Source: Escherichia phage vB_EcoP_EP32B
Length of the DNA: 64,000 nucleotides
Strand: one strand, 5' to 3'
Sequence record: OR544955
Positions within the stretch are counted from its first letter, which is position 1; every line of letters starts with the position of its first letter. Below are positions 1,681-63,127 of the stretch, one piece after another. The position numbers and the translations under genes are program-made. Below the pieces are notes generated by a model. That model worked only from the letters and a program-made list of their open reading frames with translations, made no database searches and had not been told where the DNA came from.

Positions 1681-1877
1681 TGCGTTATTCAATTGAAGAT
1701 GCCTTTAATAATGATGAAGAATTTGAAACAGAAATTAAATTCTTAATGGAAAAGTATCGTCTACGACGTCAGGATATTCGTATCCTGGCAGACCACCCGT
1801 GTGGTGAAGACGTCCTTTATATTAAAGGAAAATTTGCCGGTGCGAGTGGTATAAATAGATATGTAATTTCAACTTAG
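1680..1877 (+). CDS. uvsY.-1-like small protein
   Basis: 65 aa ORF, start overlaps uvsY stop. Confidence 0.5.
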   Translation: MRYSIEDAFNNDEEFETEIKFLMEKYRLRRQDIRILADHPCGEDVLYIKGKFAGASGINRYVIST

Positions 1878-4613: not shown

Positions 4614-6029
4614 ATGGCCTTCACTGTCACGTTATCTCCTCTAACTCCTACAGGGGTTATTGGAGGTTCACAAACATTCACTGCTACACCCGCAGGTGAA
4701 GCTCCAGACGGTACTATTACATACGTCTGGACTGTAGATGATATAACACAGGGCTCTACAGCTGCTACAATGGATTATACTCTTGCTTCTCCAGCAGGAA
4801 CAAAAAAAATTAAAGTGGTTGCAACTAATACACTTTCCGAAGGAGATCCGGAAATAGCTGAAGCATCAACAACTATCACTGTTAATAAGAAAGAAAATAA
4901 TTCCACTATCACTGTTACTCCGGCTTCTCCAGCGGCAGTAGAAATTGGAACAGCAACAACATTCACTGCTAATGTAAACAATAAACCTACTGGTGCTGCT
5001 ATTGCTTATACATGGAAAGTTGACGGGGTCGCTGTCGACGGTCAAAAACAATCAACCTTTGAATATACACCAACATCTGAAGGAACTAAGTCTATAACTT
5101 GCTCTGCCACAGTGACTGCAACTGATTACGTTGATAAAACGGTAGAATCATCAGCGGTTTCTTTGACTGTAAATAAAAAGGCTAATTCTTCAACGCTAAA
5201 AATTACACCAGAGTCTCCGACTACAGTCTTTGGTGTTCCTATTACTTTAACTGCAAATGTCTCTAGTGCACCTTCAGGTGCTACTACATCATTCCAGTGG
5301 TCAATGGATGACAGTAATATTCCAGATGCAACTTCTGCTACGTATAAATTCACTCCAACCGAGGTCGGAAGTAAAACTCTTAAATGCACCGTATCTGTTT
5401 CTGCAACAAATTATGTTACAAAAGAAATTTCAGCAGAAGCAACAGTAGTAACTAATAATGCGACATTTAATAGTGCCACCATTTCTTTATCTCCGCCATC
5501 AGTTAATACTACTGTTGGTGAAACTGCAACTTTAACAGCATCTGTTACTGGTGCTCCGGGTGATACTAATATTGTGTATTCTTGGAAGAAAGACAACGTA
5601 GCAGAAAGTAATTCTACTAATACTTACAGTATTGATACCTCCTCGGCAGGTACTCATACAATTAAAGTTGAAGCAGTATTAACTAAAGATAATTATACTT
5701 CAAAGACAATTAGTTCAACCGCTGAAGTTGTTATTGCTGAACGGACTCCAATTGAACCAGAAGGTGAACTACCTTATGTTCATCCTCTTCCGCATCGTAC
5801 TTCAGCTTACATCTGGTGCGGATGGTGGGTTATGGATGAAATCCAAAAAATGACTGAAGAAGGTAAAGATTGGAAAATTGACGATCCAGATAGTAAGTAT
5901 TACTTGCATCGTTATACGCTTCAGAAGATGATGAAAGACTACCCAGAAGTTGATGTTCAAGAATCACGTAATGGATACATCGTCCATAAAACTGCTTTGG
6001 AAACTGGTATCATCTATACATATCCATAA
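4614..6029 (+). CDS. hoc: Hoc-like outer capsid protein with four tandem Ig-like repeats
   Basis: 471 aa; four ~90 aa repeats each with (I/L)T(F/L)TA...Y(T/S)W motif plus a distinct C-terminal domain. Confidence 0.75.
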   Translation: MAFTVTLSPLTPTGVIGGSQTFTATPAGEAPDGTITYVWTVDDITQGSTAATMDYTLASPAGTKKIKVVATNTLSEGDPEIAEASTTITVNKKENNSTITVTPASPAAVEIGTATTFTANVNNKPTGAAIAYTWKVDGVAVDGQKQSTFEYTPTSEGTKSITCSATVTATDYVDKTVESSAVSLTVNKKANSSTLKITPESPTTVFGVPITLTANVSSAPSGATTSFQWSMDDSNIPDATSATYKFTPTEVGSKTLKCTVSVSATNYVTKEISAEATVVTNNATFNSATISLSPPSVNTTVGETATLTASVTGAPGDTNIVYSWKKDNVAESNSTNTYSIDTSSAGTHTIKVEAVLTKDNYTSKTISSTAEVVIAERTPIEPEGELPYVHPLPHRTSAYIWCGWWVMDEIQKMTEEGKDWKIDDPDSKYYLHRYTLQKMMKDYPEVDVQESRNGYIVHKTALETGIIYTYP

Positions 6030-9040: not shown

Positions 9041-9070
9041 GTTTACAACGTATTTGGTATGTGATACTAT
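9041..9070 (+). promoter_or_regulatory. T4 early-type promoter (GTTTAC -35, TGATACTAT extended -10)
   Basis: Same motif family as the early promoters in the 41-60 kb region. Confidence 0.55.
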
Positions 9071-9100
9071 AGACTTATCAACTACAGAGGAGTAAACAAA

Positions 9101-9370
9101 ATGACTAAAGCACGTTTCTTACGAGATACTTTAAAAGTTCTGGAAGCTGAAGCAGTTAAGTTAGTAGAAAAATATGGTGCAAAAGTTAATGGTAATGCCT
9201 TCAACAAAGTATGGATGAAAGTTGATTCTGAAGCTCGAGCTAAAGGTTATTGGGCCACTGATAAACTTGCATCATTCAAAAACAAAGACGGTTCTCCAGC
9301 ATATATCCAAGAAGGTATGCCTAATTGGCAAAATATTTTGAAAACTTACATCAAAATTGCACAGAAATAA
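9101..9370 (+). CDS. Hypothetical 89 aa protein, antisense to the late cluster between genes 23 and 24
   Basis: ORF with GAGGAG SD and own early-type promoter. Confidence 0.5.
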   Translation: MTKARFLRDTLKVLEAEAVKLVEKYGAKVNGNAFNKVWMKVDSEARAKGYWATDKLASFKNKDGSPAYIQEGMPNWQNILKTYIKIAQK

Positions 9371-9422: not shown

Positions 9423-10951
9423 TTAGATGCCTTTTACATATACACGGCGGAAGTAAGCGTTCTTACCAAGGCTGTTCAGGATAGACGGCATACCGGACTG
9501 GATGCGAGCACCTGGAGCCTGCAGGGAACTTTCAGCAAACGGGTTAACACCGATACCGTAACGAGTTTTGAAGCCCATTACCGGCTGGAAGTTCTTAGGA
9601 TCAGAACCACGCAGTGGGGTAAGTGCAACGTAAGGAGCATAGTAAATACCTGCATCCATTTCGTTAGCGCCTTTGTAACCAACGGTGAAGTAATCCTGTT
9701 TAGCATACTGGTCGATGTATACGCGGTATTTACCACCAAGTACACCGGCAAATACAGACTTAGTAGTGTCGGTATTAAAACCAGAAGCCAGACCCTGTGC
9801 AGCGTAAGAAATACCAGTATCAACTGAAGCCAGTACGTTAACTACGTTACGGGAAGCGATAATGAAGTTACCTTCACCACGACCGGTTTGACGAGCAATT
9901 TCAACTGCTTCTTTATCAATCTGGAACAACAGAGATTTAAAGCTTTCACCGGCCCAACGAGCACCACGGATATCAATCGGGTCCTGGAAGTCAAATACAC
10001 CAGCTTTAGAACCCGGAGTCAGGGTCATACCGGATTTACCAACCTGTGCTGAGTAGTTAATCCAATCAACAACTTCACGGTTGATTTCTAGCATAATTTC
10101 TGTAGCCAGAATACCACTCAGTTCAGCATCAGCATCCATACCGTGTACTGCACGGAGGTCTTGTGCTAATTCGATAGAGTAAGCAGCTTTCAGCTGGCGA
10201 GATTTAGCTTCGATAACTTGTTTATCGATACGGAAGCCCATTTCATTCCATGGGTTATCGGTAGAACCGTTGAAACCTTCCTGAAGTTCAGCGATAGAAG
10301 TAGCCATACCTTCAGCGATTTCTACCAGTGCACCAGCTTCCATTTGTTTCTTAACTTCGGCATCTAATTTAGCAGCATCGGTCGCATCGATTGTTACTTG
10401 AACAGAAGCTTGCAGATATACAGTACCAGTTTCCTGGAAGAAGTGAGTGCCAGAGCTGGGAATTTCTTAGCAGCACCCTGACCAGAGAACATCGCATCTG
10501 GGGCATACATCGGATGGAAAGCTTCTTTAGCGCCAGCAGCGATAGGGTCTTTACCATATACTGCACGGAGAGCAAATACCTGACCGGTCGGGCTGTTCAT
10601 AGGCTGAACACCACAAATATCAAAAGCGATCAGATTAGGAATAGCACGACGAACCATACCCATAACTGCTGGCCCAATTTGGGTTACTGCACCAGAGGTT
10701 TGACCTGCTGCGATGTTCTGAGCATTATAACCATGGTCACCACCAATTTCAGCTTCGGTCAAGAAAGAACCAAATGCCTGAGCGATTTTCTCGTCTTTAT
10801 ATTCAGGGGATACTTCGAAATCTTTTTCCTGGTTTTCGAAGATTTTAGCGATAATAGCCTGCTTGCTATTAGCGATTTCCGGCAGGCCTTCACCTTCCAG
10901 CAGTTCTTTCCATTTGTCTACGAGCTGAGCTTTAGTTTTGATAGTAGTCAT
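9423..10951 (-). pseudogene. 23: Major capsid protein gp23, disrupted by a frameshift near 10445-10455
   Basis: N-terminal 168 aa (ORF 10394..10951) and C-terminal part (ORF 9423..10343, frame open upstream to ~10450) both match T4 gp23 but lie in different frames. Confidence 0.85.
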
Positions 10952-11811: not shown

Positions 11812-11819
11812 TATTTATA
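11812..11819 (-). promoter_or_regulatory. T4-type late promoter for gene 22
   Basis: TATTTATA on + upstream of gp22 start 11781. Confidence 0.5.
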
Positions 11820-12428
11820 ATGCTTTTAAACTCTCTGCGAGAGCTTTAAATGCTTCATCAGCACTGTTTTTGGTGATTTCCACCGAATTTTCTGATTCTG
11901 ATATTTGTTTAGGAGTAACCCAAGCATCTGGAGCAGAAGGTCCCCACACGGCATCTACGCCGACGGTTAATTTAAATCCTTCGTTCACGATACGGTACCC
12001 TTTATTGGTGTCGGTTAAAGAACCAAGACCACGAGAGGAAACACCTGGAATCCAACCAGCTCGTATATTAGCAGCTAATTTATCGCCGGGACCATGGTCG
12101 CCTTCAATAATTCTAGCGCGTCCATATACATCGTTTCCTTTCCACCACATATCTTCAATAATGATAGCGGCTTGCATAGGGTCAACATTTGCGCGAGGTG
12201 GATGATTTAATTCTCCAAGGGCTTGTTTGGTTGCGCTTTTTCCAAAACGCGTTTAGGATATAAACGTTTATTTCGGTTAACAACCTCTGCCTGAAGAAAA
12301 ATACCTTCTATATAAAGCCCTGGTTTTAAGCCAGAATCTTTTCCATCATGAGATTCCAACATTGGAACGCCATCAATAATCTCACCGGGTTGACCCCAAG
12401 TTTCAATAAGTAACTCGGGTTTATTCAT
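11815..12428 (-). pseudogene. 21: Prohead core protease gp21, disrupted by a frameshift near 12207-12235
   Basis: N-terminal 65 aa (ORF 12207..12428) and C-terminal 138 aa (ORF 11815..12177, frame open upstream to a stop at ~12250) are in different frames. Confidence 0.8.
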
Positions 12429-20552: not shown

Positions 20553-21281
20553 TTAATTCATAAACCCATCGTCAAATGGTGAATTTTGTCTACCACGGTT
20601 GTTAACTACTACATACGGCTCAACGTATTCACTTGCCTCTGAATTGATTTGCTCAACTTCAGAATATTCATCGATATTAATGTCATGGATACCGTCAAGA
20701 TTTCTAACAGGGTTAAGTTCCAAGTCACTAAATTCAGGTATATTGATACCTTCATTTTTCTGAAGCACCGGATTGATTTCTTCGCCAGAGTAAATAAACT
20801 TGCCTGCAGTAATTTTACGAATCGCATTTTTACCTACTTGATAGAACGGGTCATATGGTTCAACCCAGTTAATCTCAAACAAACTGTTGTCCATTGGGAA
20901 GTATATCAAATCACCTTCCTTGGGCTCCTGATTGTTGACCTGGTGTTTGAAAAGACCTGGGTTAATAGATAATGTAACTTCGTCTTGAACTTGCATTCCG
21001 AAGTTGCTGAAGAACGATTTCGCTCCTTCATAACCTTCAAAAGAGTTCAGATATGCAGCAAATTTCCATGCTTTAGTAAATTTATTTTTAAGGTCCTCAC
21101 CAAAGATAAGGTCCACGGCAACATATTCACGTGGAACATAAAAACATTCAATACCGCGCATCTGTATGCTTTCTGCCACTAGAACATCGGCTAATGTCTG
21201 ACTATTCTCATAATTATTAAAATTAGAATACCCACCACGATTTTCTAGCTTGGCGAAAAGATTTTTATCATAAGTTGCCAT
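20553..21281 (-). CDS. 14: Neck protein gp14
   Basis: 242 aa (T4 256); position. Confidence 0.8.
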
Positions 21282-37937: not shown

Positions 37938-39134
37938 ATGGCCTACTCTGGTAAATGGGTCCCAAAAAATTTAAAAAAATACCGTGGAGACCATACCAAA
38001 ATAACGTATCGTTCAAACTGGGAAAAATTCTTTTTCGAATGGTTAGATAAAAATCCAGAAATTATTGCATGGGGTAGTGAAACAGCAGTAATTCCATATT
38101 TTTGTAATGCTGAAGGTAAAAAACGTCGATACTATATGGACATATGGATGAAAGATGCATCAGGTCAAGAGTTCTTTGTAGAAATAAAACCAAAGAAAGA
38201 AACTCAACCACCTATTAAGCCTGCAAATCTTACTACCGCAGCAAAGAAACGTTATATGAATGAAATATATACCTGGTCTGTGAACTGTGACAAATGGAAA
38301 GCTGCCTCAGCTATGAGCATATTCCAAATTATATCTGAAGGCGTACAAGCCCCTAAGATTGCTCAGTCTATGAATGAAAGAAAATGGATTGAGATAGGAT
38401 TAGAATACAAGAAAGCTAAAGAGAAAGGAATCACTGCAAAAGCATTTGCAGAATCAAAAGGAATAAAATACTCGTCGTTTACATCTGCAATGTCTAGATA
38501 TGCATCATCTATTAAGACCGCACAGAAAATTGAAACGCTTGAATCTAAACCTAAAAATAAACTCAATAAGCAAGAACGTCAACTTCTGATGATAAACTCG
38601 TTTCGCAGTTCAATACGAGAAAAGATTAGAAATGAAGGCGCAGCAGTAAACAACAAATCATCTAAGTGGTTTGTTGAAACAATTAAGAAAAGTGTAAAAG
38701 GTCATAAAGTAGTCAAGCCTACGCCAGGCAAAATTTATACTTACGTGTATGATGCTAAACATAAAGATACTCTGCCGTATTGGGACAGATATCCTTTGAT
38801 TATTTATTTAGGATTAGGTAAACATAATTTGATGTATGGATTAAACTTGCACTATATCCCACCTAAAGCACGACAACAGTTTCTTGAAGAATTGCTGAAG
38901 CAATATGCTAGCACAACTACTATTACTAATAACACAAAGTTGAAGATAGACTGGAGCAAGGTGAAAGGATTTCAAGGTGCTGACAAAATGATTAAAGCAT
39001 ACCTGCCTGGCCACATTAGAGGAACAATAACAGAAATAGCTCCTAAAGACTGGGCTAACATAATCATGTTACCTACTCAGCAGTTTATGTCAAAAGGAAA
39101 ACGTTTCTCTGCGAATACTGTTTGGAAATCTTAA
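37938..39134 (+). CDS. Head completion gp4-like N-terminus continuous with gp2-like (DNA end protector) region in a single 398 aa ORF
   Basis: ATG 37938 with AAGGAGG SD; one uninterrupted frame where T4 is recalled to have two genes (4 and 2). Confidence 0.5.
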
Positions 39135-41377: not shown

Positions 41378-41440
41378 ATGAAAACATATCAAGAATTTAT
41401 ATATGTTATAGTAGTCCTATCAAAACAAGAGGATAATAAA
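41378..41440 (+). other. Remnant internal-protein (IPI-type) start codon region fused to a partial PeSL
   Basis: ATG with SD encoding MKTYQEFI (capsid-targeting-sequence-like), running directly into TATGTTATAGTAGTCCTATCAAAACAAGAGGA and a second start at 41441. Confidence 0.45.
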
Positions 41441-41626
41441 ATGAAACGCGCTGAACTGATTCGTAATGTTGCTGTAGTAATTGCTTCAATGGCTTTTAGT
41501 TTTTCGATGTTTGTAGGATTCATTTGTGGACTACTGACAACAACTGAAAACTCTATCTCATTGGTAGTAGCATTTCTAATCGGCTTAATCGCTATCGTTA
41601 TGGATAAAATTGCAAAAGGTGAGTAA
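41441..41626 (+). CDS. Small hydrophobic membrane protein (61 aa; 82 aa if started at 41378)
   Basis: ATG 41441 with GAGGA SD; predicted TM helices. Confidence 0.5.
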   Translation: MKRAELIRNVAVVIASMAFSFSMFVGFICGLLTTTENSISLVVAFLIGLIAIVMDKIAKGE

Positions 41627-41989
41627 ATGAAATATCATGTATATGCAGATTTTGAAGCAAATCCTTCTAAAGACCATGATTGTCGTTTGATACGCAGACC
41701 ATTTGATTCAGCAGCTCAAGCCTGGGCTTGGATTAAATCTAAATCGCCTGGTTATATGTTCTTTGAAGTAGTCGATGACAATGGTACACTGCATCCGGCC
41801 CCTACAGAAACTATTAATTTCCTTCTGTTTGCTGGTTATGACTGTTATCCTCTTGGTGGTATTGACGACCTTGTTGCTACAGGAAAAACTGTTGAGGCTC
41901 TTCGCGAAATTTATAAAAACGCAGAAGAAAATTTTGACTGGTATCATATTGTTGATGCTCATACCTTTGAAATAGTGGAACATTCATGA
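41627..41989 (+). CDS. Hypothetical protein
   Basis: 120 aa ORF, ATGA overlap with upstream. Confidence 0.5.
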   Translation: MKYHVYADFEANPSKDHDCRLIRRPFDSAAQAWAWIKSKSPGYMFFEVVDDNGTLHPAPTETINFLLFAGYDCYPLGGIDDLVATGKTVEALREIYKNAEENFDWYHIVDAHTFEIVEHS

Positions 41990-42276
41990 TTCTTTATGCT
42001 AAGGTAAAATCCGTTGAGAATGGATATGAAAGCGACCGGGGTGCAGCTAAAGCACTAGTCGATGACTACGGTATTCTGACTAACTTTGAGGTTGAAAAGG
42101 TTTATATCGACCGTTCATCTTCACAGGTTAAATTACTCTGTGAAGACAATAAATTTAACACAGTTAATTTTGATTTCTTTATTGAAACTGAATCAGGTCC
42201 TCTTGAATATGATATTTTCAAGAATCCTTTGAAATTACGTTGCATTGAATATAATTACATTAATATGGTACGGTGA
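41986..42276 (+). CDS. Hypothetical protein
   Basis: 96 aa ORF overlapping previous stop. Confidence 0.5.
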   Translation: MILYAKVKSVENGYESDRGAAKALVDDYGILTNFEVEKVYIDRSSSQVKLLCEDNKFNTVNFDFFIETESGPLEYDIFKNPLKLRCIEYNYINMVR

Positions 42277-42280
42277 GTAA

Positions 42281-42772
42281 ATGAATATTTGTTTAGGCAG
42301 TACAATTCCTAAGGGTTACGTAATTGATGTCACTACTTGGGAAAATGACGGTGACAACTATAAAACCAAAACATTATTTGGTGTAGAAGAGCATGAGCTC
42401 CAACAGTTTAAATATCTCTTGAAGAAATTTAAGAGTCGTCATTCTAGTACTAAAGCTGAACGTTACTGTGGTAATACACTATTCAGTGATTGCTCGCTTT
42501 TAATCTATGAATACTTGGTTGAAGGACTGTTCTCAGACCAGCTTTATCCAGAATTCATTAAAAAGGTCTTTGATATTGAAGTCGACCTTGGTAATAAATC
42601 TGAAGAAGACGAATCACGTGTATTTGACCTGTTCCAAGGTCTCATTGATATTCTTGGCCATGCTTCTGAATATTATGACTATGATTTCTTGCGTGTAGTT
42701 GAACGTGTTGAATTCGCTTATATTGAAGAAGAAATTGTTTTGCCGACTGTTAAAATGATTGATTTGCTTTAA
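42281..42772 (+). CDS. Hypothetical acidic protein
   Basis: 163 aa ORF. Confidence 0.5.
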   Translation: MNICLGSTIPKGYVIDVTTWENDGDNYKTKTLFGVEEHELQQFKYLLKKFKSRHSSTKAERYCGNTLFSDCSLLIYEYLVEGLFSDQLYPEFIKKVFDIEVDLGNKSEEDESRVFDLFQGLIDILGHASEYYDYDFLRVVERVEFAYIEEEIVLPTVKMIDLL

Positions 42773-42851
42773 GAATTATGTGTTATTATTAATTCATACC
42801 CTCTATTACCAAAGGTGCTCTAAAGTGCCTTTCATAATAGAAAGTTATTTA

Positions 42852-42990
42852 GGCCCTGTAGCTCAATGGTGCAGTAGCTGCTCTGGAAAACCTGTTCCAA
42901 ATTGCAACAGAAGAACGCGAAGAAGTTACATTATGGATTGAAGATAACGCAGGTCTGAATCTCCAGGACGCGATCTCATTATCCCACAAT
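42852..42990 (+). other. Non-coding region with tRNA-like fragments (probable decayed tRNA cluster)
   Basis: GGCCCTGTAGCTCAATGGT resembles acceptor/D-arm; ...GATCTCATTATCC resembles a tRNA 3' region; no complete cloverleaf could be folded by eye. Confidence 0.3.
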
Positions 42991-43039
42991 AGTATCACTG
43001 TTCAAGGCTGGGTATCATCTAGTTATTCTTGCTAAAACA

Positions 43040-43078
43040 GTTTACAACAAGATAGGGCTATGTTATAGTAGTCCTATC
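43040..43078 (+). promoter_or_regulatory. PeSL-like early promoter with stem-loop
   Basis: GTTTAC 43040-43045; TGTTATAGT 43061-43069; inverted repeat GATAGGGCT/AGTCCTATC. Confidence 0.55.
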
Positions 43079-43097
43079 AAAACAAATGGAGTCCACA

Positions 43098-43337
43098 ATG
43101 ATTTATTACGAAAGTATCGGAACCAAAGTGGTTGGTAAAACCATTACTCGTGAAAAGTTTGCAAAGATATTCGATATGCGTTATAAAAAATCTGAACACA
43201 AAGGCATCCGATTCGAAGATGCGCACTGTACAATTTGCCCTTATAATGAAGACATAAACGGTACAATCGTTCCATTGGTAGAGGCTTCACATGATGACCT
43301 CTGGGATGAATATAATATCGCATGTCGTGAAATTTAA
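43098..43337 (+). CDS. Hypothetical protein
   Basis: 79 aa from ATG 43098 after GGAG. Confidence 0.5.
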   Translation: MIYYESIGTKVVGKTITREKFAKIFDMRYKKSEHKGIRFEDAHCTICPYNEDINGTIVPLVEASHDDLWDEYNIACREI

Positions 43338-43365
43338 GTTAATGAATTAATCCGAGGAAAATATT

Positions 43366-44322
43366 ATGATGTTAGTTATTGGTTCTCGTGCACTTCACTA
43401 TCACGGTCTTATTGATTCTAGCGCTATTAAAAATAGTGATTGGGACTTTATTGCGGACCAAGGTTCTTGGAATGCATTCAAAAATCAAATGATGGGTGTA
43501 TATGTTCACCAAGATAACCCTGATGTCCAAGTTTTCAAATGCTTCCATAATGGACGCGAAACTCATTTTGAAGCATATATTGTTCCGGCAATCACTAGTG
43601 TCCGTGAATTAGTCGGTGAACTCACTCCTGAAGATTTCACGTCTTCTTATGACCTTTTAAAATACGCCAAGAAAAATTTGACTAAAGACCGTTTGAACGG
43701 GTTTTACTGGGCAACTCCTGAGATATGTCTTGCAATTAAGATGTCTCATCGTTTCAAGAAAAATAATCCATTCTTTTTAAAGACTATGAACCATATTCAG
43801 TATCTTCGTGGTAAAGGTGTTAAACTGAACGATGAACTTACTGAAATTATGCTGAAACGCCAGAAAGAAACCTTGAACTATGCTCACCCTGTTCTTGACA
43901 CTTCTAAAAGTGCGTTCTTTAAAGATGACATCTATACATATGACCATGATACTATTCACGAAGCTATTGCACTAACAGACCGTCCGGCTTATACATTTTA
44001 CATGAAAGATGGTTCTGAAGTCATGACCTCACGCGAGAAGTTTGAATCACTTCCGGAAATGGTCAAATTGGCCGGTGTATATGAAGAAACATGTGTACTA
44101 GCGTTAGAACGTTCTCAGATTCCTAATGGCTTTGAAATCCATCCTCGTGATAGTTTTATGATGGCATTAGAAAAGGTCTGTACTTCAATCACATCAGGCT
44201 GGTTCCGTGAGTTCGCTTGGGAAAATTATAGCAAAGTAGTAAGTATGTACCAAAGCTTAGGACACGACGATTACGTCAAGCGTTTCAAACAAAACTTTCA
44301 TATGGTAAAACCTTTCAAATAA
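43366..44322 (+). CDS. Hypothetical 318 aa protein with possible nucleotidyltransferase-like GS...DxD motif
   Basis: GAGGA SD; N-terminal VIGSRALHYHGL...SDWDFIAD. Confidence 0.5.
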   Translation: MMLVIGSRALHYHGLIDSSAIKNSDWDFIADQGSWNAFKNQMMGVYVHQDNPDVQVFKCFHNGRETHFEAYIVPAITSVRELVGELTPEDFTSSYDLLKYAKKNLTKDRLNGFYWATPEICLAIKMSHRFKKNNPFFLKTMNHIQYLRGKGVKLNDELTEIMLKRQKETLNYAHPVLDTSKSAFFKDDIYTYDHDTIHEAIALTDRPAYTFYMKDGSEVMTSREKFESLPEMVKLAGVYEETCVLALERSQIPNGFEIHPRDSFMMALEKVCTSITSGWFREFAWENYSKVVSMYQSLGHDDYVKRFKQNFHMVKPFK

Positions 44323-44334
44323 TTTCACAAAACA

Positions 44335-44369
44335 GTTTACAAGGTCTGTAGTTGTTGATACTATAGACC
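44335..44369 (+). promoter_or_regulatory. PeSL-like early promoter with stem-loop
   Basis: GTTTAC 44335-44340; TGATACTAT; inverted repeat GGTCTGTAG/CTATAGACC. Confidence 0.55.
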
Positions 44370-44402
44370 TATCAAAACAAATGAGTGAATGGAGATATCA
44401 AA

Positions 44403-44603
44403 ATGACTACTTTGAATAAACGTTTCGGTAAAGCTAAACCTGGTTGTGCAGCAGAACGTCGTTATGTTTTCGCTCAGTTAGAAGATGTAGAGTATCAGAT
44501 TAATCAAGTTCACATTACTGGTATCGAGCCTATGTGTGGCCTTGAAGCTCTTCGTGAAGTTCGTGATGGGTATCGTCGTGACATCGAAGAAATGTCAAAA
44601 TAA
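44403..44603 (+). CDS. Hypothetical protein
   Basis: 66 aa from ATG 44403 after GGAG. Confidence 0.5.
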   Translation: MTTLNKRFGKAKPGCAAERRYVFAQLEDVEYQINQVHITGIEPMCGLEALREVRDGYRRDIEEMSK

Positions 44604-44604
44604 G

Positions 44605-44644
44605 TGTACAAACTGATAGGACTATGTTATAGTAGTAGTCCTAT
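44605..44644 (+). promoter_or_regulatory. PeSL-like early promoter with stem-loop
   Basis: GTGTAC -35 variant; TGTTATAGT; inverted repeat GATAGGACT/AGTCCTAT. Confidence 0.5.
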
Positions 44645-44664
44645 TAAAACATGAGGAGAATATT

Positions 44665-44970
44665 ATGAAATTAACAGAAACCAATCGAATTGGTCTTTTA
44701 ACAATACTTGCATCACCTTTTTACGCAACTCTTTCTGTTGCAGTATTACAAAAGGCTTACGATATGGATGGTGTTCCTGGTTTTGTATTCTTATCGCCGT
44801 TTTTGCTATTCGTTGGAGCATTGTTATTATATGCCACGACTGGTTTCGACCATAATGTCTGGGTCAATTATAAACGTAAATTGTCCGAAGAAGAACACGC
44901 AGAAGCTCGTAAAAAAGCTATTGAATCTACCAATCTAGAAAATTTCATTAAAGAATGTCGAGGAAAATAA
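44665..44970 (+). CDS. Small membrane protein
   Basis: 101 aa; GAGGAG SD; two predicted TM helices. Confidence 0.55.
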   Translation: MKLTETNRIGLLTILASPFYATLSVAVLQKAYDMDGVPGFVFLSPFLLFVGALLLYATTGFDHNVWVNYKRKLSEEEHAEARKKAIESTNLENFIKECRGK

Positions 44971-45092
44971 TATGAATAGTTCTAAAGTGTTTAATAGTCA
45001 AGCTCGTGCAGTAGGTGGTTTTGCTCATGCGATTAAAAATGACCAGATTAAAAACGAGCCTATGTTCTTTTGTATTTGATTCACGAGTCCAC

Positions 45093-45566
45093 ATGCTGAT
45101 GCCTGGTTGGTATCCTGCTATCCCAGGTTATCACCATGATGACGTACCACGCCCGGATATTCCGGTTGGTCAACATTTTATTACTGCAGGACAACCTGAC
45201 TATGACAATCCTCGCTATTTGTCTGAACATATTCTTGGTCTTGTTAACGCTGATGTGTGTCCTACTCATTTTGCAACAGGAACTGCGGAGTTCAGTCAGA
45301 TTCCTGATGGCGAACTTATCTATCGCCAGTGGCACAAAGAAGTCCTCGAAAAAATCGAAAAAGGCGAACTAGAGAAATGGGAAGCTCCAGACCGTACTCT
45401 TCTTCAGTTTGATTGGCAAACATGGCACACTGGTTCTCGTGCAATTAGTAATGGATGGCGTTGGTTCGGACGTGTATCTCGTAATACAGACCGAGTTAAA
45501 AAGATTACCAATGAAATTCGCGTCAATGCCCAAGTTTATCTGGAATTCCCTATGGAAGGCTGGTAA
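45093..45566 (+). CDS. Hypothetical protein (start uncertain)
   Basis: Frame open from 45015; first ATG at 45093 without clear SD; a 35 aa ORF (44972-45079) precedes it in another frame. Confidence 0.4.
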   Translation: MLMPGWYPAIPGYHHDDVPRPDIPVGQHFITAGQPDYDNPRYLSEHILGLVNADVCPTHFATGTAEFSQIPDGELIYRQWHKEVLEKIEKGELEKWEAPDRTLLQFDWQTWHTGSRAISNGWRWFGRVSRNTDRVKKITNEIRVNAQVYLEFPMEGW

Positions 45567-45925
45567 TGATTAACAAAACATATTGGTCTAATATTGACGA
45601 CGGCAATGAAGGTATTTCGTACTATTCAGTGGATTGGACAGGATGTCCATCCTACTTAGTGAAACGTATTTGCCAAGAATTTAAAATCGACAAACCAGCA
45701 GGTATTATCGTGAACAGATACATTAATGGATATCAACCTATCGATGAAGTAATACGAACAACTCAAGCTGATCTTGAAAAGTTTTTCAATAAGTGCCAAT
45801 GGATAACAGGATGGATTATATTTGTACCGTCGGTATGGTTTTTTAGTACTAAGGTGAGTTCTTTCGGTTTTGTTGATATTATTGCTATCTTATTAGCATC
45901 TGCTATCATAAGTCATCATTATTAA
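45566..45925 (+). CDS. Hypothetical protein with C-terminal hydrophobic anchor
   Basis: 119 aa; ATGA overlap with upstream. Confidence 0.5.
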   Translation: MINKTYWSNIDDGNEGISYYSVDWTGCPSYLVKRICQEFKIDKPAGIIVNRYINGYQPIDEVIRTTQADLEKFFNKCQWITGWIIFVPSVWFFSTKVSSFGFVDIIAILLASAIISHHY

Positions 45926-46018
45926 TCTTGTTAAAAGTAGTTTACAGGAACGTAAAGACAAGATAAAGGCCAAGAATAACGAAGTTGAACGTTTTATTAC
46001 TGAATGCAGGAATTTGAG

Positions 46019-46255
46019 ATGAGTATAGCAATTTACATTAAATCAGAATCATGTGATAGTTATCTGTACACATACGATAAAGATGTGTCAGAAGAAAAAA
46101 TCAAAGACGACCTTAATACGGATCTTGATATGTTCTGTCCTATTGCAGATTACAAACTTGCGGTCTCTAATAGTGAAAGTCCATCTAAAGAAACGCGCAT
46201 TGAAGAATTTATGTCCGAATTAATGGCCAAATCATGGGACCGAGATGATGAGTAA
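46019..46255 (+). CDS. Hypothetical acidic protein
   Basis: 78 aa; preceded by a GTTTAC -35-like element at 45939. Confidence 0.45.
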   Translation: MSIAIYIKSESCDSYLYTYDKDVSEEKIKDDLNTDLDMFCPIADYKLAVSNSESPSKETRIEEFMSELMAKSWDRDDE

Positions 46256-46703
46256 GAAAAATAAAGTGAAAGAACTATCAGCCGGTATTATTTTCCTTAC
46301 CGAAGATAAAGAATTATTCATGGGGCGTGTAACTGGTTCTCGTCCTAAAGGTTCTTTAGCTCATCGCTGGGATATTCCTAAAGGACGTGTCGAGCCCGGT
46401 GAATCTCCTATTGAAGCCGCTATTCGCGAATGCGAAGAAGAAACTGGGTTTACACAATATGACCCTGCCTTCCTGAAAGACCTAGGTGAACATCATTACT
46501 CAGACAATAAGAATATTCATCTGTTCCTATATACCATCCCTGTAGAGCACGAGCAATTCAGAAACAGTGCTTGTAATTCCTATCATACATTCCCAGACGG
46601 ACGACAGATTCCTGAATTTGATGCGTTCGCTTTAATTAAACCTTCTCAATGGGAATATGTGATGGGCAAATCATTATATAAGGTGCTCACTACTATCCTA
46701 TAA
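46245..46703 (+). CDS. nudE: Nudix hydrolase NudE (e.1)
   Basis: 152 aa; Nudix box GRVEPGESPIEAAIRECEEETG. Confidence 0.85.
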   Translation: MMSKKNKVKELSAGIIFLTEDKELFMGRVTGSRPKGSLAHRWDIPKGRVEPGESPIEAAIRECEEETGFTQYDPAFLKDLGEHHYSDNKNIHLFLYTIPVEHEQFRNSACNSYHTFPDGRQIPEFDAFALIKPSQWEYVMGKSLYKVLTTIL

Positions 46704-46737
46704 GTAATAAATATCTCCTATAAACGTGGGAGGTATT

Positions 46738-47226
46738 ATGAATATATTTGAAATGCTTCGTAATGACGAAGGTCTTAGACTGACTTTATACAAAGACACT
46801 GAAGGCTTTTGGACGATTGGCATAGGCCACTTGGTAACAAAGAACCCGTCTTTAGCCGTAGCTAAAGCTGAACTTGACAGAATGATCGGTCGTAAATGCA
46901 ACGGTACAATTACCCTTGATGAGGCTGAAAAGCTATTTAATGAAGACGTCGATAAAGCCGTTCGCGGAATCTTGGGTAATGCTAAACTTAAACCGGTATA
47001 TGATTCTTTAGATGCAGTTCGTCGATGTGCATTGGTCAATATGGTCTTCCAAATGGGTGTAGCAGGCGTTGCTGGTTTTACTAATTCTCTTCGTATGCTT
47101 CAACAGAAGCGTTGGGATGAAGCGGCAGTAAATCTAGCCCAATCTAAATGGTACCGTCAGACACCTAATCGAGCGAAACGCGTAATCTCAACATTTAAAA
47201 CAGGAACTTGGAAAGCGTATATATGA
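46738..47226 (+). CDS. e: Endolysin (T4 lysozyme, gene e)
   Basis: MNIFEMLR...EGLRL.LYKDTEG..TIGIGHL; 162 aa. Confidence 0.9.
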
Positions 47227-47504
47227 AAACATATAGTGAATTTTTATCAGAATCTATTCTTAACGAAGCTACTGACACATTTGCAACTAAGCTAGGTGCA
47301 GCTTTGGTTGAAGCTGAAAGTCTATTAGCACGTATTTCTGAACTTGCCAGTAAGATAGATACTCGCAAATTTGAGCGCACCAGTGATATCGTTAAGCTTG
47401 AAGCCTTGTTACGTATGTGCGATAAACCGGAAGAAATCGCTAAGAACGGCTCGCTGATGAAACAACGTCTTGAAAAATATATTTCAGGCGCTTCAGAAAA
47501 ATAG
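47223..47504 (+). CDS. Internal protein (IPII-like) with capsid targeting sequence
   Basis: 93 aa beginning [11 protein letters not shown], the CTS pattern of T4 internal proteins. Confidence 0.6.
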
Positions 47505-47505
47505 T

Positions 47506-47559
47506 GTTTACTTCCTCCAAGGACTTTGATACTATACATTCATCAACTACTTGGAGGAA
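47506..47559 (+). promoter_or_regulatory. PeSL-like early promoter with stem-loop
   Basis: GTTTAC 47506-47511; TTGATACTAT; 9 bp inverted repeat TTCCTCCAA/TTGGAGGAA. Confidence 0.55.
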
Positions 47560-47562
47560 ATT

Positions 47563-47976
47563 ATGACTCGTATCAATTTAACACTTGTTTCTGAACTGAC
47601 TGACCAACATCTTATGGCTGAGTATCGTGAATTACCACGCGTATTTGGTGCAGTCCGTAAACATGTTCAAAACGGTAAACGTGTAAAGGATTTTAAAATC
47701 TCTCCAACATTTATCTTAGGCACAGGTCACGTAACATTCTTTTACGACAAACTTGAATTTTTACGTTTACGACAAATCGAGCTAATCGCCGAATGCTTGA
47801 AACGTGGTTTCAAAATCAAGGACACGACTGTCCAGGATATTTCCGACATCCCTGCAGAATTTCGTAATAATTATGTCCCATCCGAAGCGTCCATTGCGAT
47901 AAGTCAAGCACGCTTAGATGAAAAAATTGCTCAACGTCCGACTTGGTACAAATACTATGGTAAATCAATTTACTAA
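47563..47976 (+). CDS. denV: Endonuclease V (pyrimidine dimer DNA glycosylase DenV)
   Basis: 137 aa; [12 protein letters not shown]...TWYKYYGK recalled as T4 endo V. Confidence 0.9.
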
Positions 47977-47984
47977 GGAACAAA

Positions 47985-48056
47985 ATGAAAACTCCAACCT
48001 GTAATAATGTCGAGCCCAAGTGCGGTAATGGGTTGCCACGGAATGGCCCAACATAA
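47985..48056 (+). CDS. Possible 23 aa Cys-containing micropeptide
   Basis: ATG 47985 after AAGGAA SD; MKTPTCNNVEPKCGNGLPRNGPT. Confidence 0.25.
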   Translation: MKTPTCNNVEPKCGNGLPRNGPT

Positions 48057-48068
48057 AAGAGAAACTAA

Positions 48069-48590
48069 ATGAGAACATTTTTAACTGGACCTTATCTATC
48101 CCTGATGAATGCTTTTACACACCATTCTGATGCTAGAGTAGAAGAAATTTGTAAGAACGGTTATGTCCCACCATTTGAAGACGTACTCAAGCAGTACTGT
48201 ACACTTCGTTTAGACGGTGGCAGACAATCCGGTAAATCAATTGCTGTGACTAACTTTGCTGCTAATTGGCTGTATGATGGCGGAACAGTTATTGTTCTTT
48301 CTAATACTTCAGCTTATGCTAAAATTTCTGCTGGTAACATTGAAAAAGAATTTTCTCGATATTCTAGCGATGATATTCGATTCCGTTTATTTACTGATTC
48401 TGTTCGTAGTTTTATTGGCAATGAAGGTTCTAAATTCCGTGGATTAACGCTTTCTCGTATTCTGTATATAATTGACGAGCCTATTAAAGCTCCTGATATG
48501 GATAAGATTTACAATGTCCATATTAAAACAGTTACTGTTGCAAAAGCAAATATTGCATCGGCGGTAATGCTCGTCCTCAATTTTTTGTGA
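48069..48590 (+). CDS. Hypothetical protein with P-loop-like motif
   Basis: 173 aa; GGRQSGKS. Confidence 0.5.
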   Translation: MRTFLTGPYLSLMNAFTHHSDARVEEICKNGYVPPFEDVLKQYCTLRLDGGRQSGKSIAVTNFAANWLYDGGTVIVLSNTSAYAKISAGNIEKEFSRYSSDDIRFRLFTDSVRSFIGNEGSKFRGLTLSRILYIIDEPIKAPDMDKIYNVHIKTVTVAKANIASAVMLVLNFL

Positions 48591-48600
48591 TTGGAATGCA

Positions 48601-48909
48601 ATGATGACCACTATTGAAGTTTTTGAATATTGTTATAACAGTCCAGTATGCAATAAAAGGGCCCTTGTAGAAAATTACGAGATTTACCATTTTAAACCTA
48701 AACGATATCGTTTGACTAAAGGTCCGTTCGCAGGGCAGCAGGTTCTTTGTACTGCTCCTAATGCACGACTGATGACTAGTATTCCACATTTCAAAATGGA
48801 ATTTATTGATGGGCCATTTAAGGGATTAACCACTCAAAGTTTAATGGCGTTTAGTTCTGACCCATTTTTGATTAAAGAAAAAACTTGGATAAATTTATTT
48901 TCTAATTGA
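48601..48909 (+). CDS. Hypothetical protein
   Basis: 102 aa ORF. Confidence 0.5.
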   Translation: MMTTIEVFEYCYNSPVCNKRALVENYEIYHFKPKRYRLTKGPFAGQQVLCTAPNARLMTSIPHFKMEFIDGPFKGLTTQSLMAFSSDPFLIKEKTWINLFSN

Positions 48910-48915
48910 GGTTAT

Positions 48916-49278
48916 ATGAAAGCATATCAAATTCTTGAAGGTGCACATAAAGGCACTATTTATTTTGAAGACGGTACTCAAGCCCGGATTATTGTCTCTA
49001 AGACTTTTAAAGAAGACGCTATTGTAGACCCGGAAATTTTCTACGGTTTGAATGCCCGTGAAATTGAAATTGAACATCAACCTAAAGTTAAAATTGAAGG
49101 TGGTCAACACCTGAACGTTAACGTTCTGCGTCGCGAAACTCTGGAAGATGCAGTTAAGCATCCAGAAAAATATCCGCAGCTGACCATCCGTGTATCCGGT
49201 TATGCAGTTCGCTTTAACTCTCTAACTCCGGAACAGCAGCGCGACGTTATCGCTCGTACCTTTACTGAGAGTCTATAA
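48916..49278 (+). CDS. Autonomous glycyl radical cofactor (GrcA/YfiD-like; T4 Y06I-type)
   Basis: 120 aa; C-terminal ...[29 protein letters not shown] glycyl radical motif nearly identical to recalled E. coli GrcA. Confidence 0.75.
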
Positions 49279-49502
49279 TGGCTAAATTGATTATAGAAGG
49301 GTCTGAAGATGTTTTAAAATGTTTTGCCGCCTGGTTTAGTTGCTCAGGCGAGCAATCATTCATTGAAGCATTTAGAATGGGTGATATTACTGGAAACTAT
49401 CCGACAACTGATATCACTGTACGTGGATATGGTATTAATGAGCCTATCCAATTGGTCGAATATGACCTTGCCACCGATGAGGAAATTCCTTATGTCGATT
49501 GA
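49278..49502 (+). CDS. Hypothetical protein
   Basis: 74 aa ORF. Confidence 0.45.
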
Positions 49503-49890
49503 AGACATCAAAGGCTATAAGCCGCATACCGACGATAAAATCGGTAAAGTGAACGCTATTAAAGATGCAGAAGTTCGAGGAAAAATACTAATGGCTCAAA
49601 TCCTATCAGGCTTTGGAACTCATTATGAAGCATCTAGACGCATAACTGAAAGCAATCCTTTTGGCCTTGTTCCGAAGCACAAGAAAATTCAAAGCCTTGA
49701 TGACTTTGAGAACCGCCTATGGGCCCTCTTTAATGAGTACAAGGCATATCTGAAAGAAGACGCTGACGATTGTCTTGAAGAAGATGAGATTGCGTATTAC
49801 GAACAACGCCTTGAACAGCTCAAGAACTTCCATCAGGTTCGTGACGAAGTATCTAAAGCAGTTAAAAAGTTAATTCCTTTCAAAGAGTAG
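49492..49890 (+). CDS. Hypothetical protein
   Basis: 132 aa from ATG 49492 overlapping upstream stop. Confidence 0.45.
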
Positions 49891-49940
49891 TTTACTTCTC
49901 CTCTAGTTGTGTTACTATAGACATGTCAACTAGAGGAGAA
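49890..49940 (+). promoter_or_regulatory. PeSL-like early promoter with 14 bp perfect stem
   Basis: GTTTAC 49890-49895; TGTTACTAT in loop; inverted repeat TTCTCCTCTAGTTG (49896-49909) / CAACTAGAGGAGAA (49927-49940), which includes the regB SD. Confidence 0.6.
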
Positions 49941-49946
49941 ATCAAA

Positions 49947-50405
49947 ATGACTATCAATTCAGACGTTTTTATCCGCCGTAATAAACTCCGTCGAATCTTT
50001 GAAACGGAGTTCCGCAAAATAAATGCCGGTATAAAAGATGCTGCAAAGTCTCTTGGACTACCAGGCTTTCATATCAAGTATTCTCAACATCTCTTAGATC
50101 GTGCCATCCAGAGAGAAATAGATGAGAATTACGTTTTTGAATTATTTCATAAAGTAAAAAATCATGTTAAAGAAGTTGCAGAATTTTTATCAATGCCGGC
50201 ACGTCCAGATGTTGATGAAGATTTTGTCGAAGGTGTCGAGTATCGTCCAGGCCGTTTAGAAATAACTGATGGAAATCTTTGGTTAGGACTTACAGTCTGT
50301 CGCGAAAATCCAGCATTCAAAATGAAGACTCTTCAATGCAGAATGGCTATTATTAACAGTAAACGACTACCAGGAAAAGCTTCTAAAGCAGTGATTAAAA
50401 TCTAG
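49947..50405 (+). CDS. regB: RegB endoribonuclease
   Basis: 152 aa; MTINSDVFIRRNKLRR...LQCRMAIINSKRLPGKASKAVIKI recalled as T4 RegB. Confidence 0.85.
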   Translation: MTINSDVFIRRNKLRRIFETEFRKINAGIKDAAKSLGLPGFHIKYSQHLLDRAIQREIDENYVFELFHKVKNHVKEVAEFLSMPARPDVDEDFVEGVEYRPGRLEITDGNLWLGLTVCRENPAFKMKTLQCRMAIINSKRLPGKASKAVIKI

Positions 50406-50413
50406 AGGTAAAC

Positions 50414-50956
50414 ATGAGAAAAGCACTACTCGCTGGTCTATTTGCTCTTTCATTATCAGCACATAGCTCCGAGCATACTTTTAGTAATGTCCAACTCGAT
50501 AACTTGAATTATGCTTATCAGTTTGGGGAACAGTTTTCTAAGGACGGAAAATTTAAAACGCATGAAAATATGCATAAGAAAGGACTTGGATACATAATGG
50601 CCGCAATACTATGGCAGGAATCATCTGCCGGTATTAATCTTAAAGATAAGAAAGGTCACCATGCGTATGGAATGTTCCAAAATTATCTACCAACAATGAG
50701 GGTAAGAATTAACCAGCTTGGTTATAATATGACTGATGCCCAAATTAAGAAAATGCTATCTAAGCGGTCTAATTCAGCCAGATGGGCTTATATCGAATTT
50801 TCTTATTGGTTAAATATACATAACGGGGATATAAGAAAAGCTATATCCTCATATAATGCGGGATGGAAGACAAGTGCTGGAAGTAAATATGCTTCTGAAG
50901 TCCTAGAAAAGGCTAATTACCTTAAATCAAATAAACTACTGGAAATAAAAGAATGA
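50414..50956 (+). CDS. Secreted lytic transglycosylase-like protein (SLT motifs)
   Basis: 180 aa; N-terminal signal peptide; QESSAG and SYNAG motifs. Confidence 0.55.
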   Translation: MRKALLAGLFALSLSAHSSEHTFSNVQLDNLNYAYQFGEQFSKDGKFKTHENMHKKGLGYIMAAILWQESSAGINLKDKKGHHAYGMFQNYLPTMRVRINQLGYNMTDAQIKKMLSKRSNSARWAYIEFSYWLNIHNGDIRKAISSYNAGWKTSAGSKYASEVLEKANYLKSNKLLEIKE

Positions 50957-51300
50957 CCAAAATGTTGGCTTTAATAGTTGGCTTGGTTTCATTTAGCGCT
51001 CTTGCTAATACTACATATACTGATGTAACGGAGTATACAAACAGAACGGCGTCTGATTATTGTGGTAAAAGTCAAGAGTGTAAAGTAGATTTTTCACAAA
51101 AATTGTTATATGCGTATAAAGACGGAGAAAAAGATGGGGCGTCTAGTAGGTTCAAGGCGTCTACCTTAATTAAAAGATACTATAAAAAATGGCAAATATT
51201 AGAATGCTCGGTGGCGGAACCTAAAGATAAGGCAGCATGCAATTCTATGGTGGACCGTCTAGTTGACTCTTATAATAGAGGACTTGCAGCAAGTGATTAA
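50953..51300 (+). CDS. Secreted hypothetical protein
   Basis: 115 aa; signal peptide MTKMLALIVGLVSFSALA. Confidence 0.5.
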   Translation: MTKMLALIVGLVSFSALANTTYTDVTEYTNRTASDYCGKSQECKVDFSQKLLYAYKDGEKDGASSRFKASTLIKRYYKKWQILECSVAEPKDKAACNSMVDRLVDSYNRGLAASD

Positions 51301-51760
51301 AAACTATATCAAGGGCGATATTGTCGCCCTGTTTTCTAAAGGTAATAATATTGCTCATGGGTGTAATTGTTTTCATACAATGGGCGCTGGTGTGGCAGGA
51401 CAATTAGCAAAGGCTTATCCAAAAATTTTAGAAGCCGATAAACTTCAAACCGAATTCGGAGACGAGTCTAAACTCGGGACTTATTCGGTTTATGAAAAAT
51501 ATTTTAAGACCCATAAAGCTTATTGCTTTAATCTTTATACACAGTTTGAGCCTGGACCTAATTTTGAGTACTATGCTTTAATGAATTGTATAATAGAATT
51601 AAATGAATTCGGAAAGAATAAGATAACAAAGCCTGTAATTTATATGCCAAGAATTGGTGCAGGTATCGGTGGCGGAAACTGGGATGTCATCGAAGAGATT
51701 TTAGACACATATTCCACTAAACTAGAAATTGTGATTGTTGATTGGGAACCATTATTATGA
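51263..51760 (+). CDS. Macro-domain protein (start uncertain, TTG/GTG)
   Basis: 165 aa; GDI...NIAHGCNCFHTMGAGVAGQL resembles macro domain ADP-ribose binding motifs. Confidence 0.5.
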   Translation: MTLIIEDLQQVIKNYIKGDIVALFSKGNNIAHGCNCFHTMGAGVAGQLAKAYPKILEADKLQTEFGDESKLGTYSVYEKYFKTHKAYCFNLYTQFEPGPNFEYYALMNCIIELNEFGKNKITKPVIYMPRIGAGIGGGNWDVIEEILDTYSTKLEIVIVDWEPLL

Positions 51761-51969
51761 ATATACATTATCCACATCCATATGACCCAAAGAATAAGGC
51801 AGTAATTATTCGTCAATGGGAACGCATTTGCCGTACTAAATGCCCAATTAATAGTCCACATGATGTAGATAAAGACTATATTGGAACATTCGTTGAATAT
51901 ACCTTTATTGATAAGAAAGGTCGTAAACAACATGTAGAAGAATATTGCTTAAAGGTTACATGGTTATGA
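51742..51969 (+). CDS. Hypothetical protein
   Basis: 75 aa ORF overlapping tk 5' end. Confidence 0.4.
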   Translation: MGTIIMNIHYPHPYDPKNKAVIIRQWERICRTKCPINSPHDVDKDYIGTFVEYTFIDKKGRKQHVEEYCLKVTWL

Positions 51970-52496
51970 GTCTTACTGCCGCCCATAACTATAAAGAACG
52001 TGGCATGGGTGTATTAGTTCTTAAACCGGCTATTGATACTCGCGATTCAAAAGGTGAAATAGTCTCTCGTATTGGTATTCGTCAGGACGCCAATATAATT
52101 ACAAAAGACATGGATATCTTTGAATTCTATAAATGGGCTGCAGCACAAAAGGATATTCATTGTGTATTTGTTGACGAAGCTCAGTTCTTAACTACTGAAA
52201 AGGTGTATCAACTTAGTCGTATTGTTGACGTATACAATGTGCCGGTAATGGCATATGGACTACGAACAGATTTTAAAGGTAATCTATTTGAAGGTTCTCA
52301 AGCATTAATGGCTATTGCCGATAAGCTTGTTGAACTTAAAGGTGTCTGTCATTGCGGTAAAAAGGCCACAATGGTAGCTAGAGTCACGGAAGACGGACTT
52401 CCAATTACAGATGGCAGTCAAATTGAAATTGGTGATACTGATAGATATGTGTCATTATGCCGGAAGCATTGGAATGATTTGACAGGGTTGTTATAA
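51960..52496 (+). CDS. tk: Thymidine kinase lacking the N-terminal P-loop (5'-truncated tk)
   Basis: Matches TK from ...AAHNYKERGM through C-terminal Zn motif CHCGKK...LCRKHW; no GxxxxGKS upstream in any frame; in-frame stop at 51924. Confidence 0.7.
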   Translation: MVMSLTAAHNYKERGMGVLVLKPAIDTRDSKGEIVSRIGIRQDANIITKDMDIFEFYKWAAAQKDIHCVFVDEAQFLTTEKVYQLSRIVDVYNVPVMAYGLRTDFKGNLFEGSQALMAIADKLVELKGVCHCGKKATMVARVTEDGLPITDGSQIEIGDTDRYVSLCRKHWNDLTGLL

Positions 52497-53339: not shown

Positions 53340-53546
53340 ATGCTTTACGATTATACTGGAAAATCTGAAGACGGTGTACTTGAACTTTTACCTGAAAGCG
53401 CTGAAGACGATGATATGGTGGTGATGTTTTGTAAAAATGGCCCTGGGGATAAGGGATGGATTTATCTTCGCCAAGAAAATGACTTAATTGTTTTGGACCC
53501 TAAACAAGTTGAAGAACTTTATCAACATTTAAAACACAATCGGTAG
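53340..53546 (+). CDS. Hypothetical acidic protein (68 aa)
   Basis: ATG 53340. Confidence 0.45.
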   Translation: MLYDYTGKSEDGVLELLPESAEDDDMVVMFCKNGPGDKGWIYLRQENDLIVLDPKQVEELYQHLKHNR

Positions 53547-53586
53547 TTTACGTCTTGGTAGGACTATGATATAGTAATCCTACCAA
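53546..53586 (+). promoter_or_regulatory. PeSL-like early promoter with stem-loop
   Basis: GTTTAC 53546-53551; TATGATATAGT; 9 bp inverted repeat TTGGTAGGA/TCCTACCAA. Confidence 0.55.
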
Positions 53587-53603
53587 AACAAATGGAGAAC
53601 AAA

Positions 53604-55922: not shown

Positions 55923-56204
55923 ATGAAAAAATTAGTAATTGGTTTATTCGCAGTAATGATGGCATTCTCTGTTGGTGCTACCACGGGTGCTGCTGGCGGT
56001 AGTGCAGGAGCTGGTGGTAACCAGTCTTCTGGGCCTTCTAATGGTTCGGTAAATGCATCACATTCTCAGGGTATTGAGAACATTAGATCAAGCTATATTA
56101 ATAGCACGGCCGGACAAGCAACTGAAGCATGGTCAAAGGGCCGAGTAGTTACTCGCTCCGTATTCTGTGATATGCCTAATTATGTTGCTAAGTGCGATAA
56201 GTAA
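55923..56204 (+). CDS. Secreted Gly/Ser-rich small protein
   Basis: 93 aa; signal peptide; GAAGGSAGAGGNQSSG. Confidence 0.5.
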   Translation: MKKLVIGLFAVMMAFSVGATTGAAGGSAGAGGNQSSGPSNGSVNASHSQGIENIRSSYINSTAGQATEAWSKGRVVTRSVFCDMPNYVAKCDK

Positions 56205-63088: not shown

Positions 63089-63127
63089 GTAATAAATACC
63101 CTTATCTATTTAAGGTAAGGGTTTATC

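Follow-up and report, generated by a model that had tools for sequence, protein, structure and literature searches.

The interrupted major capsid gene 23 of Escherichia phage vB_EcoP_EP32B is very probably one of 16 non-biological gaps in an ordinary Mosigvirus genome

In the head of T4, the hexameric capsomers consist of the major capsid protein gp23 (PMC3185693). In the 64,000-nucleotide stretch of Escherichia phage vB_EcoP_EP32B that was analysed here (record OR544955; hereafter the window), gene 23 reads on the minus strand from 10951 to 9423, with a span of 1529 nt that is not a multiple of three and with its two halves in different frames (-1 and -3). If this lesion were real, the window would represent a T4-like phage that has no working major capsid protein, a state incompatible with virion formation. 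Does the break belong to the phage, or to the sequence by which the phage is represented?

Gene 23 as written and its 34-nt gap

Reading the open reading frames (Table 1) bore out what the first-pass annotation had claimed for both halves of the gene, namely that the N-terminal part ends in AAKKFPALA followed by 17 junk codons and a stop at 10394, and that the C-terminal part continues in a different frame with an upstream stop and no usable start. The gp23-like stretch of the N-terminal ORF runs up to ...SGQGAAKKFPALA, and the bases read as junk beyond it (10394 to 10447, minus strand) give authentic gp23 residues when the other frame is read. In that other frame, a stop precedes THFF by seven codons, and translation could begin no earlier than the ATG at 10343, which encodes the M of MEAGALVE and lies 35 codons beyond the junction. 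By tblastn, the 3' part is identical at 341 of 341 residues to gp23 residues 180-520 of Escherichia coli O157 typing phage 3 (KP869101). Both pieces match the Pfam family Gp23 (PF07068), the N-terminal one at model positions 1-64 (E = 5.8e-19) and the C-terminal one at positions 86-375 (E = 7.7e-99); since these are consecutive parts of the model, the lesion is no chance feature. A single continuous ORF of about 520 codons is not present in the window. We also considered a functional capsid protein made in two pieces and rejected it, because a stop lies in frame immediately before the 3' part and the first start comes only 35 codons after the junction.

A deletion of about 34 nt that removed the residues ASTQTTVGDIY had been proposed near 10445-10455. 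In a global alignment against the KP869101 gene (1563 nt), the difference resolves into a single gap of exactly 34 nt at 10448/10449, corresponding to gene positions 504-537, with just 11 substitutions in the rest of the gene. The bases lost encode A-STQTTVGDIY (residues A168/S169-Y178 plus one base). Loss of 34 nt shifts the frame, so that the N-terminal ORF ends after its 17 junk codons and the 341 remaining codons are left without a usable start. The identical gap was seen on alignment to T4 gene 23. The first-pass annotation had also described both halves as near-identical to T4 gp23; both are indeed present, but the nearest kin are Mosigvirus phages, with up to 99.3% nucleotide identity in gene 23, compared to 96% amino acid and 90% nucleotide identity for T4.

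Table 1. Gene 23 features and private deletions in the window, with the positions of the bases on either side of each junction
Feature	Positions	Strand	Description
Gene 23 5' part, authentic	10449..10951	-	Codons 1-167 plus 2 nt, ending ...KKFPAL(A); 100% collinear with KP869101 gene positions 1-503
gp23 N-terminal ORF	10394..10951	-	185 aa from ATG at 10951; MTTIKTK...AAKKFPALA, then 17 unrelated codons
Out-of-frame read-through of N-terminal ORF	10394..10447	-	17 junk codons LTSSRKLVLYICKLLFK, TAA stop at 10394-10396
Gene 23 3' part, authentic	9423..10448	-	341 codons (9426-10448) plus stop; THFFQETGTVYLQASVQ...RRVYVKGI; starts THFFQETG
Deletion junction, gene 23	10448..10449	-	34 nt TGCTAGCACACAAACCACAGTAGGTGATATCTAT (coding strand) gone; microhomology 0 nt
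Deletion	1840..1841		50 nt; frameshift in uvsY.-1-like ORF
Gene 21 (prohead protease)	11818..12428	-	Private 28-nt blunt deletion at 12234/12235; split into two frames
Deletion	21222..21223		36 nt in gene 14 (neck protein); in-frame, 12 residues gone
Deletion	38311..38312		77 nt; takes the stop and final ~25 codons of gene 4 (head completion) and reaches almost to the gene 2 ATG
Nine clustered private blunt deletions	41401..51972		The nine deletions that follow
Deletion	41401/41402		286-614 nt; ipI region
Deletion	42635/42636		24 nt; ORF
Deletion	42870/42871		4.3-6.1 kb depending on the relative; begins mid tRNA-Met, ends inside an ORF
Deletion	45069/45070		92 nt; ORF
Deletion	45913/45914		35 nt; e.2 ORF
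Deletion	47992/47993		345-1082 nt; ORF
Deletion	48033/48034		29 nt; intergenic
Deletion	49576/49577		146 nt; vs.4 ORF
Deletion	51971/51972		446 nt; tk.3, tk.2 and first 19 codons of tdk gone
Deletion	60076/60077		133 nt; nrdC.5, frameshift
Deletion	62237/62238		216 nt; in-frame, ORF downstream of nrdC

Gene 23 in the relatives

The window belongs to a Mosigvirus, that is, an RB69-like T-even phage, and is about 98% identical to KP869101, with the best relatives reaching about 98.3-98.4%. Among the best 30 of 1122 matching phage records, gene 23 is intact at 1563-1572 nt, and the matches break into two pieces exactly at the window lesion. We compared 13 relatives or assemblies base by base, comprising six GenBank relatives, six contigs from JGI, ENA, NCBI and Logan that encode the exact gp24 of the window, and one IMG/VR contig. 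All 13 have exactly 34 extra nucleotides at 10448/10449, including the divergent IMG/VR contig, which is only 82-94% identical to the window. A natural polymorphism would be recognised by a state shared with an independent relative, and the gene 23 deletion is shared with none of the 13. Genes called in the further contigs encode an intact gp23 of 522 aa and a gp21 of 213-215 aa. As to whether a reference might have the same broken frame, a possibility left open by the first-pass annotation, every relative compared has a single continuous ORF of 520-522 codons.

The junction 34-mer had no exact match in the viral_contigs, metagenome_contigs or genome_contigs collections; a control search for the undeleted gene 23 site was positive. 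Complete E. coli genomes gave no match either. No exact products of the truncated gp23, of Hoc or of RnlB are on record, and none of the 8 titles listed, out of 12 matching papers, concerns a naturally split gp23 in T4-like phages. Similar to T4-type gp23 (PF07068; PDB 6UZC, 7VS5 and 5VF3, with the PDB gp23 chains matching the restored relative at E = 0), both window pieces belong to the family and lie in the same synteny; unlike the gp23 of the compared relatives, which is one continuous ORF, the window gene lacks 34 nt and its frame is broken. The order of the head genes, gp20-67-68-21-22-23-(small ORF)-24, is collinear with KP869101 and six other assemblies. The small ORF between genes 24 and 23 (9101-9370, plus strand, 89 aa) is kept in all Mosigvirus relatives and has no Pfam hit in precomputed annotations; in T4, the counterpart position is occupied by the segD homing endonuclease gene.

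Sixteen private blunt deletions in the window

Aligned over its whole length, the window is collinear with KP869101, and there are many places where sequence of the relative is absent from it. For each such junction we measured, across the panel of relatives, the length of sequence that separates the flanks adjacent in the window. By this measure the window has 16 private blunt deletions, ranging from 24 nt to about 5 kb and totalling about 7.3 kb relative to KP869101, and contains no insertions of comparable size. The deletions of 50, 28, 36, 77, 24, 92, 35, 146, 446 and 216 nt do not vary in size among the relatives tested. One further stretch of KP869101 that the window lacks, 188 nt at 63089/63090 with two tiny ORFs lying between pin and gene 49, is missing from phage mar009P5 as well. 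This difference is thus a natural presence/absence polymorphism, and the measure separates such natural variation from private lesions.

Several essential genes are struck. In gene 21, residues 66-74 are lost, and tblastn places the remaining pieces in separate frames, where they match positions 1-71 and 82-197 of Pfam Peptidase_S77. Just 1.8 kb separates this lesion, the second lethal one, from that in gene 23. The thymidine kinase gene tdk retains 174 residues that are 100% identical to KP869101, the first 19 codons now missing presumably including the nucleotide-binding N-terminus, and several accessory ORFs were also found by tblastn to be frameshifted. ARAGORN detected no tRNA genes in the window, because the tRNA cluster, two or three genes in the relatives, falls within the large deletion at 42870/42871.

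The placement of the cuts is random with respect to genes and codons. They disregard gene boundaries, and the lengths of four of the 16 are divisible by three (5.3 expected by chance). Microhomology at the junctions averages 0.8 nt, compared to 0.72 nt when the same sequence is cut at random, and is 0 nt at gp23. No boundary motif was apparent by eye at the cut sites. The deleted segments were not found elsewhere within the window, where only short shared intergenic repeats matched. These recurring intergenic elements of about 35-50 nt (9061-9107, 49909-49953, 44353-44413, 43039-43085 and 53543-53591), which are present in the missing segments too, resemble promoter or terminator-type repeats that T-even genomes have in common.

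Outside the gaps the sequence is that of a well-maintained phage. The undamaged proteins gp24, gp22, gp20, gp18, gp17 and gp2 are 99.5-100% identical to those of relatives by tblastn. Across 22 genes, the private substitutions comprise 70 synonymous and 13 non-synonymous changes (5:0 in gp23 and gp21 together), and eight of the 13 fall in the fast-evolving hoc. This ratio points to purifying selection up to the sampled sequence, so that the lesions are unaccompanied by decay; gradual pseudogenisation was rejected on the same ratio. Hoc itself (4614-6029, plus strand, 471 aa; 376 or 471-472 aa in relatives) is the most strain-specific protein of the window, and its exact sequence is likewise not on record. 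Small indels of 1-6 nt are rare and nearly all intergenic, indicating that base-level quality is good and that this is not a generally error-prone assembly; the window also contains zero N bases. The only small indel seen in a coding region, by comparison with KP869101, is a 4-nt deletion (ACAG) at about 48533 that shifts the last 23 codons of vs.8. Separately, a 15-nt in-frame insertion relative to KP869101 (GTGCTGCTGGCGGTA, 55987-56001) lies in a Gly/Ala-rich repetitive coding stretch and is probably natural variation in repeat number.

Origin of the gaps

We consider it very probable that the gene 23 gap is a non-biological loss, one of 16 segments dropped from an ordinary, well-conserved Mosigvirus genome. 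Segments dropped from a sequence would leave many private lesions that are blind to genes and to essentiality and that show no decay, and this is the pattern found in the window. Taken together, the gp23 and gp21 frameshifts and the truncated gp4 could not be carried by any replicating phage, and we infer that the gaps go back to in silico steps or to the sequencing pipeline rather than to a phage that replicated. The gene 23 lesion is, in our judgement, not a real biological feature. It had been stated at the outset that this genome cannot make a capsid unless the lesion is an artefact. The sequence as written indeed yields no gp23; with 15 further private deletions in the window, the second branch of that statement is the one strongly favoured.

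The missing stretches may have been lost during assembly, consensus calling or later handling. Possible routes would include the omission of uncovered or unmapped stretches from the consensus instead of their being filled with N, the stripping out of gap characters, or some other excision. The larger losses fall where relatives vary most in length, and it is in such length-variable regions that reads would not map to a reference, which fits this kind of loss but does not prove it. Two observations count against an artefact: the window is free of N and otherwise accurate at the base level, and end-joining repair in vivo can also make blunt deletions without microhomology.

The latter observation leads to the best of the alternatives, that the record is the faithful sequence of a real, non-viable, multiply deleted T-even genome, which we regard as unlikely. 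Such a molecule could have come from nuclease defence or Cas9/NHEJ genome reduction, from an engineered deletion library, or from a defective genome carried by a helper. Its junctions would be blunt and without microhomology, as end joining predicts and as observed; the deletions are clean at the base level within otherwise accurate sequence, and 10 of the 16 lie in the accessory-gene-rich region at 38-52 kb. However, viability selection could not retain the gp23 and gp21 frameshifts and the gp4 truncation on one molecule, the in-frame fraction (4 of 16) indicates no selection on frame, and the gene 23 junction is in none of the three public contig collections searched. A helper-dependent defective genome with 16 lesions should in addition show relaxed selection, in contrast to the 70:13 ratio observed. 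The more specific possibility, in which a host nuclease defence or Cas9 cut the genome in numerous places and end joining independent of microhomology closed the breaks, seems to us very unlikely; if true, it would be a documented case of such repair operating more than once on the genome of a T4-like phage.

Still more doubtful is a single genuine spontaneous mutation of gene 23, as in a laboratory mutant stock, with the remaining differences being natural strain variation. The lengths of relatives do vary at 41402 (286-614 nt), 42871 (4.3-6.1 kb) and 47993 (345-1082 nt), and the difference at 63090 is demonstrably natural. However, the small deletions that fall in conserved genes are just as private, of constant size across the relatives tested and frame-breaking, and even the large deletions start or end within genes or a tRNA. 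Deletions in T4 are known to arise between short direct repeats, as in the rII deletions, and those recovered lie in non-essential or conditionally dispensable genes. Similar to these, the window deletions remove tens to thousands of bases from a T-even genome; unlike them, they show microhomology at the random level and strike essential genes, and the gene 23 junction has no short direct repeat. Repeat-mediated spontaneous deletion was rejected on the 0 nt of microhomology at gp23 and on a mean over the junctions of 0.8 nt, where random cutting would give 0.72 nt.

That gp23 is instead made by programmed recoding, through a -1 frameshift or ribosomal bypassing, to give a product without about 11 residues, can for practical purposes be set aside: over about 25 codons spanning the junction, neither the zero nor the -1 frame contains a stop, such that a shift could in principle join the parts, but none of the marks of a programmed -1 frameshift (a slippery heptamer, a stable downstream structure and a conserved arrangement) was found. 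Specifically, the overlap zone (gene positions 470-560) has no X XXY YYZ heptamer, the RNA around and downstream of the junction folds at a minimum free energy of -30.7 kcal/mol compared to a shuffle mean of -29.6 (z = -0.30), and the frame arrangement occurs in none of the compared relatives; recoding would also leave unexplained the remaining 15 lesions, among them the frameshift in gp21. Bypassing would be recognised by extra non-coding nucleotides that interrupt a complete coding sequence, and gene 23 of the window has no such insert. T4 gene 60, where ribosomes bypass a 50-nt coding gap, is likewise a T-even gene with coding parts discontinuous in the DNA; it differs in having extra untranslated nucleotides relative to its homologues, whereas the window gene 23 lacks 34 coding nucleotides and has no hairpin signal. 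Gene 10 of T7 and T3 is likewise a capsid gene whose full reading needs a change of frame, and that of T7 has a defined slippery site near its 3' end. The passage on this gene in PMC3185693 (citing Condron et al. 1991) describes a programmed -1 frameshift in T7 gene 10, common to T3, that yields the capsid protein 10B and lengthens about 10% of the capsid proteins by 52 residues at the C-terminus. In contrast, gene 23 of the window has no slippery site, stimulatory structure or conservation of the arrangement, and has lost coding sequence. Gene 10 and gene 60 are the known cases that come nearest, and neither agrees with the window gene in any of the defining features tested.

The non-biological loss of segments therefore remains the reading that we favour, and its practical value lies in quality control. 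The sequence contains at least 16 spurious gaps and is unfit for inferences on gene content, pseudogenes or defective phages; its annotation would yield spurious pseudogenes in gp23, gp21, gp4, tdk and some ten further ORFs, and would miss the tRNA cluster. The actual phage would be expected to carry a normal gene 23 of 520 codons.
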